NCBI GenBank assembly: GCA_024698045.1
Contig: JAILRS010000033.1
Span: 1,159 to 65,158 of the forward strand
From: Selenomonadaceae bacterium
GTDB taxonomy: Bacteria; Bacillota; Negativicutes; Selenomonadales; Selenomonadaceae
Direction of reading: 5' to 3'
DNA: 64,000 nt
Made by a program: the position numbers and the translations under genes. The notes beneath the pieces are model-generated. The model saw nothing but the letters and a program-made list of their open reading frames with translations, had not been told where the DNA came from and searched no databases. Position 1 is the first letter of the stretch; each line of letters begins with the position of its first letter. This document shows positions 22,946 through 26,533 of this stretch, in pieces.

Positions 22946-22974
22946 TTGTCAGCGTGAATTGTTTGTGGTTTAAT
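22946..22974 (+). promoter_or_regulatory. sigma-70-type promoter upstream of the 23055 ORF
   Basis: TTGTCA (22946-22951), 17 nt spacer, TTTAAT (22969-22974), with TG one base upstream. Confidence 0.45.
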
Positions 22975-23054
22975 GAGCACAGAAAATTTTGTTTACGATT
23001 ACTTGAAAGGTGGTGACGACGCGGCTTGTCGTTGATATTTGCCGTGTCAATCCT

Positions 23055-23678
23055 ATGAATTTGAAAGAGGCATTTCAAGCGCAAAATTCAATCGAAAAGT
23101 TATTGTCCTTCCTCGAAGATTATTTCTCTAACGGAGATAATTTGATAAGCACGACAGAAAAACATTTTCGCTCGAAAGCTGCGCAAGGTCAGCCCGATGA
23201 AAAAATAAATATCGTCACCGAGGATAAATTTCCGCCCGATAAAGTTATCGAATTCCTTTTGGTTTTGCTTGACGAACGCGAAAAACTTGCCGCGGCGGTT
23301 CACGATACAAAGGCAGCTATGAATTTCGATTTGGATTCCGCCGTTGATGTCAACAAAAAACGTCATTGCGCTATCGAAATGTTGCGCGGTCTTCGTAACT
23401 ACAAAAGTTCAAGTCTCGTCGAAAAAAATGCCGGTGTCGGTTACGTCTTCAACAACGAAGGCAATCAAACTACTTACCGTTACGATATCGAGCGCGTCAA
23501 GACCATTGACTTTGACAGAAATAAAGTTCGCAATATTGTTGCCAAACTTCAGGAGCAGGCGGATAAAGTTTCTGCGGAAATAGATGCCGCGCTTATCTCC
23601 TCGACCGTTAACTATGAATATCCCTTCGATATGCACGCGAGTAATTTGGAGATTCTCGAGGATTTTGTAAACAGATAA
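23055..23678 (+). CDS. hypothetical protein (207 aa from ATG 23055; 222 aa if GTG 23010 is used)
   Basis: MNLKEAFQAQNSIEKLLSFLEDYF... is mostly helical by composition with a beta-like middle (GVGYVFNNEGNQTTYRYDIERVKTIDF). No family recognised. No long competing ORF in another frame. Confidence 0.65.
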   Translation: MNLKEAFQAQNSIEKLLSFLEDYFSNGDNLISTTEKHFRSKAAQGQPDEKINIVTEDKFPPDKVIEFLLVLLDEREKLAAAVHDTKAAMNFDLDSAVDVNKKRHCAIEMLRGLRNYKSSSLVEKNAGVGYVFNNEGNQTTYRYDIERVKTIDFDRNKVRNIVAKLQEQADKVSAEIDAALISSTVNYEYPFDMHASNLEILEDFVNR

Positions 23679-23687
23679 ATTTTCGTT

Positions 23688-24063
23688 CGAGGTCTCGGCG
23701 GAGGGCGGAATTTTTTCGGCGGCGTCGGTTCAGATGCAGATGAACTGAGAGGCTGCATGACCTTCGGTTTCGGGTTAATGAAACTATCTTTGACGTTTGT
23801 TTACTCCTTCGGGAATGAACACCGCTTAATATTGATTGATGCGTTCACTGCGCAGGCAATCATAAATCGTTTCGACATTACCGAAAGACACAAATCGTTA
23901 ACGCGTCAAATCGTTAACACCAAAATTCTTTAGGCACAAATACGTTTCTCCGAGATTATGCCTAATGAGGCTTTTTAAAATCTTTGAGTCGTTCGGCTTT
24001 CGTTACGGGAGTCGGCGACAAATAGACAATGCCGGAAATTTTTTGCCTTCCGCCGAGACCTTG
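23688..24063 (+). ncRNA. candidate large structured RNA / leader element closed by a long helix; alternative reading is a MITE-like inverted-repeat element
   Basis: 23688-23706 pairs with 24045-24063 (19 bp). 23707-23710 pairs with 24041-24044. 23713-23720 pairs with 24031-24038. Five of the 7 arm imperfections are G-U on the + strand. Internal hairpins: 23727-23762, 23799-23820 (C-UUCG-G capped), 23833-23862, 23870-23886, 23930-23965. Confidence 0.45.
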
Positions 24064-24073
24064 AGCGATTTTT

Positions 24074-24112
24074 AGGGACTAGAGAAATTAAATTTTCTAG
24101 TCCCTTATTTAT
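24074..24112 (+). terminator. strong hairpin with U-rich tail immediately upstream of the cydA RBS
   Basis: AGGGACTAGAGAA attaaa TTTTCTAGTCCCT (13 bp, one G-U) followed by TATTTAT. The cydA RBS AAGGGGGG starts at 24113. Confidence 0.6.
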
Positions 24113-24127
24113 AAGGGGGGAAACCTT

Positions 24128-25495
24128 ATGGACGCAGTGATTTTATCGCGATTGCAGTTCGCGATAACCACAATCTATCATTTTCTTTTCGTGCCCGTGA
24201 CGTTGGGTCTTTCAATCTTCGTCGCACTGCTTGAATTGTGGTATGTCAACAGTGACAGTTACTACGAACGATTGAAACTCAAACGGCTTGTAAAATTTTT
24301 CGGGACAATCTTCCTGATAAATTTCGCAATGGGTGTCGTAACCGGTATCGTGCAAGAATTTCATTTCGGCATGAACTGGTCGGAATACTCTCGATTCATG
24401 GGCGATATCTTCGGTGCGCCTCTTGCCTTGGAGGCTCTTACGGCTTTCTTCCTTGAATCAACTTTTATCGGGCTGTGGATTTTCGGCTGGGATAAGTTGA
24501 GCGAAAAAATGCATTGCCTTTGCATTTGGATTGTAGCCTTTGGCAGTAATTTATCAGCCTTTTGGATTCTCGTCGCCAATTCTTTCATGCAACACCCTGT
24601 AGGCTACGAAATTTCAGACGGGCGTGCGGTCATGACGAGTTTCTTTGACTTGGTTACTAATCCCTACGTTTTGGGCGAATATTTCCATGCATTGTTCGCA
24701 GGAATCACTACCGCGGGATTTTTGGTTATCGTGGTCAGCGCGTGGAAAATCGCGACGGATGATATTTCACGCGAAATGTTTGTCCGTACATTGCGCCGCG
24801 CGGTTCTGTTTACCTTCTTCGGCTTATTGGGCGTCATGGGTTCCGGTCACATGCACGCGCAATATCTTGCCGAAGCCAATCCGATGAAGTTGGCATCTTT
24901 TGAAGCTCTTTGGGAGACAGAAAATCCTGCGCCGTTCGCAATCGTAGCCGATATCAATCAAAAAGAAGGTCGCAATGATTTTGAAATCACAATCCCCAAA
25001 ATGTTTACGTTCATGGTGCATAATTCTTTCAGCGGCGAAGTAAAAGGTATCAACGATTTGCAAAATGAGGCAGTTGAAAAATACGGTAGCGGTTATTATA
25101 TCCCGAATGATGTGCGCGGTATGTTTTGGAGCTTCCGCATAATGATTGCCACGGGCGGATTGATGATGCTGGTTGTCTTCGCAATGTGGTTCGTTTCGTT
25201 TTTAAAGCGCAAGTATATCAACGATTACAAATGTTACCTGAAGATGATGCCGATACTTTTGCCGATTCCGTTTATCGCAAATTCTGTCGGCTGGTATATC
25301 GCCGAGGCAGGTCGTCAACCGTGGATAGTGGTTGGTCTGCAGAAAACCGCAGTAGCCGTCAGCCCGAATTTATCCGCCGAAGAAGTTTGGTTGACTATGA
25401 TTGGTTTCACGATAATTTATTTGGCATTGGCTGTCCTCGCGGTTTTCGCGGCGGTCAAATTTATTCGGCGCACAAAAATTACGGCGGAAGAATGA
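24128..25495 (+). CDS. cydA: cytochrome bd-type quinol oxidase subunit I
   Basis: LSRLQFAITTIYHFLFVPVTLGL...EFHFGMNWS...GRQPW(I)V are CydA signatures. 455 aa. Confidence 0.96.
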   Translation: MDAVILSRLQFAITTIYHFLFVPVTLGLSIFVALLELWYVNSDSYYERLKLKRLVKFFGTIFLINFAMGVVTGIVQEFHFGMNWSEYSRFMGDIFGAPLALEALTAFFLESTFIGLWIFGWDKLSEKMHCLCIWIVAFGSNLSAFWILVANSFMQHPVGYEISDGRAVMTSFFDLVTNPYVLGEYFHALFAGITTAGFLVIVVSAWKIATDDISREMFVRTLRRAVLFTFFGLLGVMGSGHMHAQYLAEANPMKLASFEALWETENPAPFAIVADINQKEGRNDFEITIPKMFTFMVHNSFSGEVKGINDLQNEAVEKYGSGYYIPNDVRGMFWSFRIMIATGGLMMLVVFAMWFVSFLKRKYINDYKCYLKMMPILLPIPFIANSVGWYIAEAGRQPWIVVGLQKTAVAVSPNLSAEEVWLTMIGFTIIYLALAVLAVFAAVKFIRRTKITAEE

Positions 25496-25528
25496 TTCGG
25501 AAAAATTTTCCGCAAGGGAGTGAGCAAC

Positions 25529-26533
25529 ATGGATTTAAATATTATCTGGTTCGCGCTGATAACGATACTCTTCACGGGATTTTTTATCCTCGAGGGTTTT
25601 GATTACGGCGTAGGAATAATGATGATAGGTCGCCCGAGAAATGAACGCGGACAATTTATTCGCGCAATCGGTCCCGTATGGGATGGAAACGAAGTGTGGA
25701 TGATAACGGCCGGCGGCGCAACTTTCGCGGCATTTCCGCACGTTTACGCTACCATGTTCAGCACGTTTTATATCGCGTTGTTTTTGATGTTAATGGCACT
25801 GATTATGCGCGGCGTTGCCTTTGAATTGCGCGGAAAATTTCAATCGCCCGACTGGGTAAATTTATGGGACTTCGGAATTATTTTCGGCAGTTTTGTCCCC
25901 GCGTTACTTTGGGGCGTCGCGGTCGTCAATCTCCTGCGCGGCTTACCGATTGATTTCCAAATGCATTATGTCGGAACATTTTTTGACTTGCTGAATCCCT
26001 GCGCATTGCTCGGCGGAATTTTCTTCGTCCTGCTGTTTACTTTCCACGGCGCGAATTTTTTGCTGATTAAATTATCCGACAAGGGTCTGCTGCAGGAAAT
26101 AAGTCGCCAAAGTTTTAAATTGGGAATTGCCGCGCTGATTGTCTATGTACTCTTCGGAGCGGTCGCCGCCGTCGAAACGGATTTACTTGCCAAAGCTCCG
26201 ACGATTATCTTTATCTTACTGTCAATCGTCGCGCTCGTCTACGGTTGCCGCAGTGCATATATCAAATCCGGTCAATGCGCGTTCTTTTCGTCGACGCTCA
26301 GTGTTGCTATGCTGGTATTCGGATTTTTTACGGCACTGTTCCCGAGAATCATGGTCTCGAGTATAAATCCCGAATACAGTCTTGATATTTACAATGCCGC
26401 GTCAACTTCCTACACCTTGACGATTATGACGGTAGCGGCATTAATCTTCGTGCCGATTGTCCTTTGCTATCAAGCGTGGAGCTACAAAATTTTCAAGGAA
26501 CGAATCGCGCCGACCGACGTGAATTATCATTGA
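25529..26533 (+). CDS. cydB: cytochrome bd-type quinol oxidase subunit II
   Basis: Track start is GTG 25520. ATG 25529 is 8 nt after GGGAG. MDLNIIWFALITILFTGFFILEGFDYGVG...GPVWDGNEVW are CydB motifs. Confidence 0.94.
   Translation: MDLNIIWFALITILFTGFFILEGFDYGVGIMMIGRPRNERGQFIRAIGPVWDGNEVWMITAGGATFAAFPHVYATMFSTFYIALFLMLMALIMRGVAFELRGKFQSPDWVNLWDFGIIFGSFVPALLWGVAVVNLLRGLPIDFQMHYVGTFFDLLNPCALLGGIFFVLLFTFHGANFLLIKLSDKGLLQEISRQSFKLGIAALIVYVLFGAVAAVETDLLAKAPTIIFILLSIVALVYGCRSAYIKSGQCAFFSSTLSVAMLVFGFFTALFPRIMVSSINPEYSLDIYNAASTSYTLTIMTVAALIFVPIVLCYQAWSYKIFKERIAPTDVNYH

Follow-up and report, generated by a model that had tools for sequence, protein, structure and literature searches.

The cyd locus and the gap upstream of cydA

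The window analyzed here, a stretch of 64,000 nucleotides (nt) from contig JAILRS010000033.1 of a Quinella-like rumen member of the Selenomonadaceae, carries the genes cydA and cydB of a cytochrome bd oxidase, preceded by a gene for a 207-amino-acid (207-aa) protein and by a gap of 449 nt between the end of that open reading frame (ORF) at 23678 and the cydA ATG at 24128. Within the gap lie a structured RNA of ~385 nt, which we group with the 207-aa gene under the name of cassette, and a terminator-like hairpin that ends shortly before the cydA ribosome-binding site. The features of the locus are as follows.

22946-22974, + strand: predicted sigma-70-type promoter (-35 TTGTCA at 22946-22951, 17-nt spacer, extended -10 TGgTTTAAT at 22966-22974)
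23055-23678, + strand: gene for the 207-aa protein ('up222'), no known family, N-terminus MNLKEAFQ
23683-24068, + strand: structured RNA, ~385 nt, spanning both arms of its closing helix P1
24074-24113, + strand: putative intrinsic-terminator hairpin with interrupted U-tract UAUUUAUA, forming the 3' end of the cassette
24113-24130, + strand: cydA ribosome-binding site AAGGGGGG and start codon ATG (24128)
24128-25495, + strand: cydA, cytochrome bd oxidase (Pfam PF01654, E = 2e-153)
25520-26533, + strand: cydB, cytochrome bd oxidase (Pfam PF02322, E = 2e-95)

An earlier note on this DNA had found no acceptable promoter between the structured element and the cydA ATG, and our scans of 23679-24127 agree with it. 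The consensus scan of both strands, in which the sigma-70-type consensus alone was used and whose coverage did not include 22946-22974, returned no sigma-70 promoter, and in the position-weight scan the best match in the gap reached 8.1 bits and that across the hairpin 7.3 bits, compared with 11.8-15.4 bits for the conserved cydA promoters of relatives and 11.8 bits for the site at 22946-22974. The cydAB genes must be expressed, because they are the sole copy in the genome (2.08 Mb, 99%-complete assembly) and are well conserved among cassette carriers, whose CydAB proteins are 80-89% identical. A second cydAB copy with its own promoter was considered and rejected, none being present in the genome. 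Coding potential of the gap was likewise rejected, since its 58-aa ORF at 23757-23933 belongs to no family and the region varies by insertions and deletions and by covarying stems. A literature search yielded no paper linking Quinella to cytochrome bd.

The hairpin that the earlier note placed before cydA is borne out as a stem of 13 pairs, 5 of them G-C, at 24074-24105 on the + strand (arms AGGGACUAGAGAAAUU and AAAUUUUCUAGUCCCU, loop of 6 nt). It begins 5 nt past the P1 3' arm and is followed by the tail at 24106-24113, the Shine-Dalgarno sequence (SD) at 24113-24120 and the cydA ATG, the distance from the end of the stem to the ATG being 22 nt, of which the SD takes 8. Folded alone, the hairpin reaches -18.9 kcal/mol (z = -4.1; 1 of 200 shuffles was equally good), and its tail is T-rich on the + strand only. 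It combines two properties of an intrinsic terminator, a stable G+C-containing stem-loop and a position at the 3' end of a transcribed unit; the tail, with 5 U in 8 and interrupted by A, satisfies the scan rule, although orthologues have stronger runs of U5-U9. Terminator-like sites in the 1.2-kb stretch numbered 2 against 1.8 expected, a count no higher than chance; the reality of the hairpin rests on comparative evidence. A fold of 24060-24135 also contains a small A/U-rich hairpin at 24108-24132, with UUAUAAGG pairing to CCUUAUGG, which could mask part of the cydA SD and AUG and which is not kept at L012 (L numbers denote the loci compared).

A structured RNA linked to the 207-aa gene

The RNA is bounded by a 38-nt inverted repeat, 23683-23720 with 24031-24068, that encloses 310 nt. 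The elements within it are as follows.

23683-23720, + strand: P1 5' arm (partner 24031-24068)
24031-24068, + strand: P1 3' arm (partner 23683-23720)
23727-23758, + strand: conserved core, with the P2 hairpin GGUUCA (23727-32)/UGAACU (23741-46)
23942-23951, + strand: family-wide motif ACGUUUCUCC, containing UUUCUC
24020-24027, + strand: conserved junction AAAUAGAC before the P1 3' arm, its GAC pairing with GUC at 23724-23726

The minimum free energy of the + strand is -174 kcal/mol (z = -10.1) and that of the - strand -140 kcal/mol (z = -6.6), and of the 8 DNA mismatches between the P1 arms 6 are G-U pairs on the + strand only. Among the loci compared, the sequence of P1 has been swapped wholesale while the helix has been retained, as illustrated by the arms GAGGUCUCGGCGGAGGGC, CGUUGCGCAUUACGUC, GUUCGGAGUUUUGGUUGAGGGC, CAGCCGCUUGAGCAGGGACAG and GGCUGCUCCGGCAGGGGCAGGG. 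Across 81 distinct sequences representing 33 arm types, cognate arms pair with a mean energy of -47.7 kcal/mol versus -22.5 kcal/mol for non-cognate arms; the median helix comprises 29 bp, and the cognate arm falls within the top 5% in 67 of the 81. The core generally consists of the hairpin GGUUCA/UGAACU, whose loop GUGCAG is paired to CUGCAC eight bases downstream to give an H-type pseudoknot, and in the window the P2 loop AUGCAG (23734-39) pairs in this way with CUGCAU (23753-58). Core pairing holds in 98.6% of cells (A3, 37 distinct cores) compared with 26-36% in slid controls, and 4 of the 6 pseudoknot pairs show changes on both sides (GC, UA, AU, CG, GU), with more variants among the phage copies described below. 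The junction pair covaries as well (GCC/GGC at L015 and L023, AUC/GGU at L036), AAUAG is conserved before the P1 3' arm, and the motif ACG(Y)UUC(N)CC is kept in Selenomonas, Centipeda, Anaerovibrio, Mitsuokella and the phage copies. A long-range pairing between GAGAGG (23747-52) and ACGYUUCNCC, assessed by eye across genera, is no more than a candidate.

Searches of Rfam 15 with the window copy and 20 related loci returned nothing relevant at E <= 1, and our literature search found no paper describing this RNA. The genome of 2.08 Mb has only one copy of the element, which for that reason is not a miniature inverted-repeat transposable element; this identity and that of an invertible promoter were both rejected on the grounds of the single copy, the strand-specific G-U pairs and the covariation of the arms across species. 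The comparative sequence data point to a genuine, autonomous RNA.

Of 262 Selenomonadaceae genomes, 81, from 15 of 40 genera, have one match each to the core pattern, whose reversed control gave 0 matches; carriers include Selenomonas ruminantium, S. sputigena, Centipeda, Mitsuokella, Anaerovibrio and Schwartzia. A homologue of the 207-aa protein is encoded just upstream of the RNA in all of the 30 loci fetched, except at contig ends, and a search that started from the protein placed the core 40-110 nt past the stop codon in 76 of 80 loci, the other 4 being truncated by contig ends or broken. By comparison, 12 of the 16 loci examined from the Quinella-like genus have cydA downstream of the RNA, versus 0 of 14 from other genera, where the genes that follow the RNA are heterogeneous. 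The gap itself is conserved and syntenic in 17 of the 25 genomes of the genus first sampled. This distribution, in which the RNA is tied to the 207-aa gene in 15 genera and on phage contigs and to cydA in a single genus, speaks against the earlier interpretation of the region as a conditional attenuator or riboswitch-like leader. The associated suggestion that UUUCUC competes for the GAGAAA of the hairpin is unlikely to hold, UUUCUC being part of the family-wide motif that is kept in genomes and phages without the hairpin.

In Selenomonas and Centipeda the RNA measures 520-610 nt and ends in textbook terminators a few nt past P1 (for example, GCCCGCCCACGAACG...CGUGGGCGGGCGUUUUU); many copies have terminators with runs of 5-9 U, and in several lineages a TATAAT box stands 6-15 nt before P1. 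The linkage to the 207-aa gene, the textbook terminators and the TATAAT boxes before P1 together suggest that the RNA is a gene of its own and that the hairpin is its terminator. At L020 and L021 a perfect promoter, TTGAAT-17-TGTATAAT, lies ~12 nt before P1 and is followed by the RNA and then by cydA, with no 207-aa gene detected in these incomplete assemblies; because promoter, RNA and cydA are found there without a detectable protein gene, a small door is left open for a cis role of the RNA.

Copies of the cassette also lie on phage contigs. Distant members of the protein family are encoded on metagenomic contigs that also bear phage genes, namely GP88, RNA ligase and an intein-bearing methylase, and each is followed 3' by a gene-free gap of 480-500 nt that folds as a long closing helix plus a covaried hairpin-pseudoknot core, such as GCUUCG-UUGUGUA-UGAAGU...UACAC. 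In IMG/VR one query matched 52 viral contigs, 28 of which carry the core downstream by the strict pattern, while others miss it by one outer pair; a tblastn search of the INPHARED annotated phages with two family members gave no match. Judged by these sequences, the cassette is phage-related, and on the IMG/VR contigs it is followed by genes other than cydA. A canonical terminator directly follows P1 at L225, and at L227 and L229 the SD of the next gene directly follows P1 with no terminator between them, so that the RNA can sit inside an operon. On the IMG/VR contigs L260, L261 and L265, tRNA genes come directly after the RNA region.

The partner protein has 548 close homologues, and a profile search recovered 928 clusters at 50% identity, while searches against Pfam, NCBIfam, PADLOC, PHROGs and PDB sequences gave nothing significant. 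Its AlphaFold2 model (pLDDT 87.6) consists of long helices, predicted to form a coiled coil, plus beta-hairpins; the best PDB match in a fold search was 3kdq, of unknown function, followed by prefoldin-like coiled coils, all at E > 1e-3. The name 'formate dehydrogenase' given to it in several NCBI records of metagenome-assembled genomes has no support in the domains, fold or context found here. The conserved start MNLKEAFQ (ATG 23055) stands without a good SD, and in-frame GTG codons at 23010/23013 lie just after AAAGG; one of these may be the start codon used in this species.

Individual loci show further variation. In one Quinella lineage (L032, L139 and L125) a 161-aa ORF resembling an HNH-type homing endonuclease (MEFRTIPSLENRYEISRDGK...) lies between the 3' end of the RNA and cydA, an insertion that may bear on how the cassette moves. 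At L011 and L014 (= L143 and L142) two tandem units of ~100 nt follow the RNA, each containing TTTGTCAAC and ending with a copy of the P1 3'-arm tail GCGCCGAGACCTTGAAC, and cydA lies ~200 nt further off. Short tandem repeats separate the RNA from cydA at L039, L163, L164 and L138 (TAGTGGTG-like, CCCTAA-like and ACTAGGAAC/CTAGTTCCT). The cassette at L137 is decaying, with a frameshifted 207-aa gene and mismatched pseudoknot partners (ACGCAG/CUACGC). Selenomonas ruminantium ATCC 12561 has two cassettes (L178 and L192) with different P1 arms and different pseudoknots, GUGCAG/CUGCAU and GUGUGG/CCACAC.

The promoter block and probable read-through into cydAB

A strong promoter is present 32-48 nt before the cydA ATG in the cassette-free relatives L028, L030, L035, L040, L042 and L038 (~100 nt in L028), usually as GTTGCAAATTTCATTGTCAA-N-GCGATTTATGATTTAAT and with the conserved form TTGTCA-17-TGnTTTAAT. 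It belongs to a block composed of the terminator of the upstream gene, GTTGCAAATTTCATTGTCAA...GCGATTTATGATTTAAT, an A/T-rich leader and an SD, which is found 5' of cydA (ATGGAC) in L028, L030, L035 and L040 and 5' of the 207-aa gene (ATGAAT) in carriers, ~24 cassette-bearing Quinella-type loci having the block in the latter position. Alignment A5, of 10 sequences, shows no variation in the -35, the TG or the -10. The block that adjoins cydA in relatives sits 1.15 kb upstream in the window, before the 207-aa gene, where the site at 22946-22974, 3' of the PBP2 gene, has the hexamers and spacing of the cydA promoters of the cassette-free relatives. Because the cydA block of these relatives precedes the 207-aa gene in carriers, the cassette separates the cyd promoter from cydA, and the whole unit of 207-aa gene, RNA and cydAB likely has its promoter at 22946-22974.

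Three further observations concern this region. The best sigma-70 match of the region, TTGACA-16-TATTGT at 23512-23539 (12.5 bits), lies within the 207-aa gene and has similar counterparts in S. ruminantium copies; it may be a by-product of coding, as it occupies the codons of the invariant IDFDRNKVR motif. At the cassette-free L029 the promoter, ~430 nt before cydA, is split by an insertion of ~400 nt between TTGTCAAG repeats, which brings a TTGAAA-17-TATAAT promoter of its own along with a G+C-rich segment that may be structured. A leader segment, AAAATTTTTT..GGA(G/A)AGTGA, occurs twice in carriers, before the 207-aa gene and before cydA (A5; junctions of L145/L009), and looks like an imperfect direct repeat of ~25 nt flanking the cassette.

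The position of the hairpin is also occupied in other copies. Hairpins of the same geometry are found 3' of P1 in Selenomonas and Centipeda copies and on the phage-like contig L225, a covarying hairpin stands in the same place at L012/L153 and another hairpin at L149. The 3' flank of P1 was judged by eye across loci, automatic classing having over-extended the ends of P1. The hairpin is restricted to about three Quinella lineages; in the other Quinella lineages a U-run directly follows the closing helix, and most cyd-linked orthologues have P1 plus a U-run only, the separate hairpin having been lost.

We favor, at a probability of roughly 0.6, the reading in which the hairpin is the terminator of the 207-aa gene and RNA cassette within the cyd unit and cydAB is reached by read-through. 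It builds on points that the analysis shows: how the RNA is structured and conserved, that it is linked to the protein gene and not to cydA, that the promoter block is orthologous and that no promoter intervenes. Because the terminator of the cassette separates the promoter from the oxidase genes, the oxidase is probably made only via read-through. The earlier note had proposed a dependence of cydAB on upstream transcription, and both the promoterless gap and the relatives' block 1.15 kb upstream lend support to this proposal, which comparison with the relatives makes probable. The start of transcription, the degree of termination and any regulation of read-through are predicted parts of the scheme. 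Transcription of cydAB would start at the conserved promoter at 22946-22974, polymerase would continue across the protein gene and then the RNA, and only the fraction that passes the closing helix and the hairpin would reach cydAB. The interrupted U-tract would make the terminator leaky, and the stable RNA would derive from transcripts that are terminated, at P1 or at the hairpin, or processed.

Several points weigh against the read-through scheme. The promoter region of the window has diverged, with a leader of 81 nt versus ~35 nt and without the upstream TTGCAAATTTCA element, and the SD before the ATG of the 207-aa gene is poor. A -10 box directly precedes P1 in S. ruminantium-type loci and at L164/L165, and because it adjoins P1 in some lineages transcription of the unit may begin at more than one site. 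The RNA may contain a weak or non-sigma-70 promoter, or one may overlap the hairpin, and the 38-bp helix together with the 13-bp hairpin might terminate efficiently enough to leave cydAB poorly expressed.

One alternative to read-through, which we consider unlikely, is that cydAB has its own unrecognized promoter within the 3' portion of the RNA or across the hairpin, whether a weak sigma-70 promoter or one that depends on an alternative sigma factor or an activator, and that the hairpin acts as an insulator. A terminator right before a gene usually signals a new transcription unit, the scan was limited to the sigma-70-type consensus, and weak matches do exist at 24061-24089 (TTGAGC-17-GAAATT, 7.3 bits) and 23898-23926 (TTAACG-17-CAAAAT, 8.1 bits). 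Both candidates, however, fall far below the 11.8-15.4 bits of the real cydA promoters of the genus, and a start in the 22 nt between stem and ATG would delete the SD. In most carriers, moreover, P1 is separated from the ATG by only 20-45 nt of U-rich leader that lacks conserved hexamers, and the genuine cyd block is already accounted for upstream.

The hairpin may instead be a processing or stability element, the transcript being cleaved between the RNA and cydA to give full-level cydAB mRNA while the hairpin shields the 3' end of the RNA from exonucleases. The interrupted U-tract suits this idea, as do the RNAs at L227 and L229, which lie inside operons without any terminator; because of these two copies, some members of the family must be released by processing, and 6S RNA (ssrS-ygfA) offers a precedent. 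Many copies nevertheless end in textbook terminators with 5-9 U and no recognizable cleavage-site motif is present, which leaves cleavage in place of termination doubtful here, although the proposal overlaps the read-through reading in sharing its promoter and its co-transcription.

Least probable, to the point that we set it aside, is a riboswitch-like leader at 23688-24112 dedicated to cydAB that senses a signal such as oxygen, redox state or haem and toggles the hairpin from terminator to antiterminator accordingly. In its favor, the RNA shows extensive structure and a conserved core with a pseudoknot, lies directly 5' of cydA in many Quinella-type genomes and stands alone between promoter and cydA in the incomplete assemblies of L020/L021, but beyond one genus it never adjoins cydA and always follows the 207-aa gene, copies occur on phage contigs, the hairpin is absent from most cyd-linked copies while UUUCUC is kept where the hairpin is absent, the comparison revealed no conserved pairing as an alternative to the hairpin, and a length of 385-600 nt is well above known aptamer sizes.

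An extension of the read-through reading, which we put forward as speculative, holds that the 207-aa protein and the ~385-nt RNA form an undescribed phage-borne ribonucleoprotein module that was captured in the cyd operon of the Quinella-like genus, where folding of the helix and terminator would gate the sole oxidase, possibly in a manner set by occupancy by the partner protein. If this were true, hundreds of variants of the module would be present in gut and rumen phages and in 15 Selenomonadaceae genera. Read-through would account for the seemingly promoterless respiratory oxidase operon of an uncultured rumen anaerobe, whose sole cytochrome bd oxidase, an oxygen-scavenging enzyme, has a foreign cassette with a putative terminator in front of it and is probably set in level by read-through. 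The conserved gene pair, a coiled-coil protein of ~210 aa and a pseudoknotted RNA of 350-600 nt, occurs on at least 52 IMG/VR phage contigs and is new to Pfam, Rfam and the literature searched, and it is directly testable in culturable oral and rumen carriers such as Selenomonas ruminantium, S. sputigena, Centipeda periodontii and Mitsuokella jalaludinii.

Comparison with known systems

Internal terminators that are read through and RNA genes co-transcribed with the ORFs that follow them are both known arrangements. In Escherichia coli, ssrS, the gene for the structured 6S RNA, is co-transcribed with the downstream protein gene ygfA. The cassette RNA resembles 6S RNA as a long helix-closed RNA that lies upstream of protein genes, is probably co-transcribed with them and would be freed by termination or processing. 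Unlike 6S RNA, with which it shares no sequence or structure match, it is twice as long, has a pseudoknotted core and a dedicated upstream protein gene, and is patchy and phage-borne rather than universal. Like leaky internal terminators and attenuators, the locus places a stem-loop and U-tract between a promoter and distal genes, whose expression would equal the read-through fraction, but the terminator appears to belong to an inserted RNA cassette, not to a leader that evolved for the distal genes, and no antiterminator is evident. With riboswitches and T-box leaders it shares a structured 5' region and a terminator hairpin immediately before the SD of a gene; it differs from them in that no conserved association ties it to the downstream gene, the RNA is several-fold larger and the terminator is dispensable among orthologues.

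Further parallels are found among the large structured RNAs of unknown function, which include OLE, with its proteins OapA/B/C, and GOLLD and ROOL, which often occur in prophages near tRNA genes (PMC12286853, PMC5737381). No Rfam model of these or other families matches the cassette RNA at E <= 1, and it resembles the class of large, ornate, phage-linked RNAs to which GOLLD and ROOL belong (PMC12286853) without being a member of that class. Its partner protein, in contrast to that of OLE, is predicted to be soluble and prefoldin-like and is unrelated to OapA, and the order is protein gene and then RNA. As in OLE, however, a dedicated protein gene adjoins the RNA, and as in GOLLD and ROOL, tRNA genes follow some of the phage copies. 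With these large RNAs as a class the cassette RNA has in common a length of several hundred nt, an ornate structure, a long closing helix and an occurrence in phages and a few bacterial lineages.

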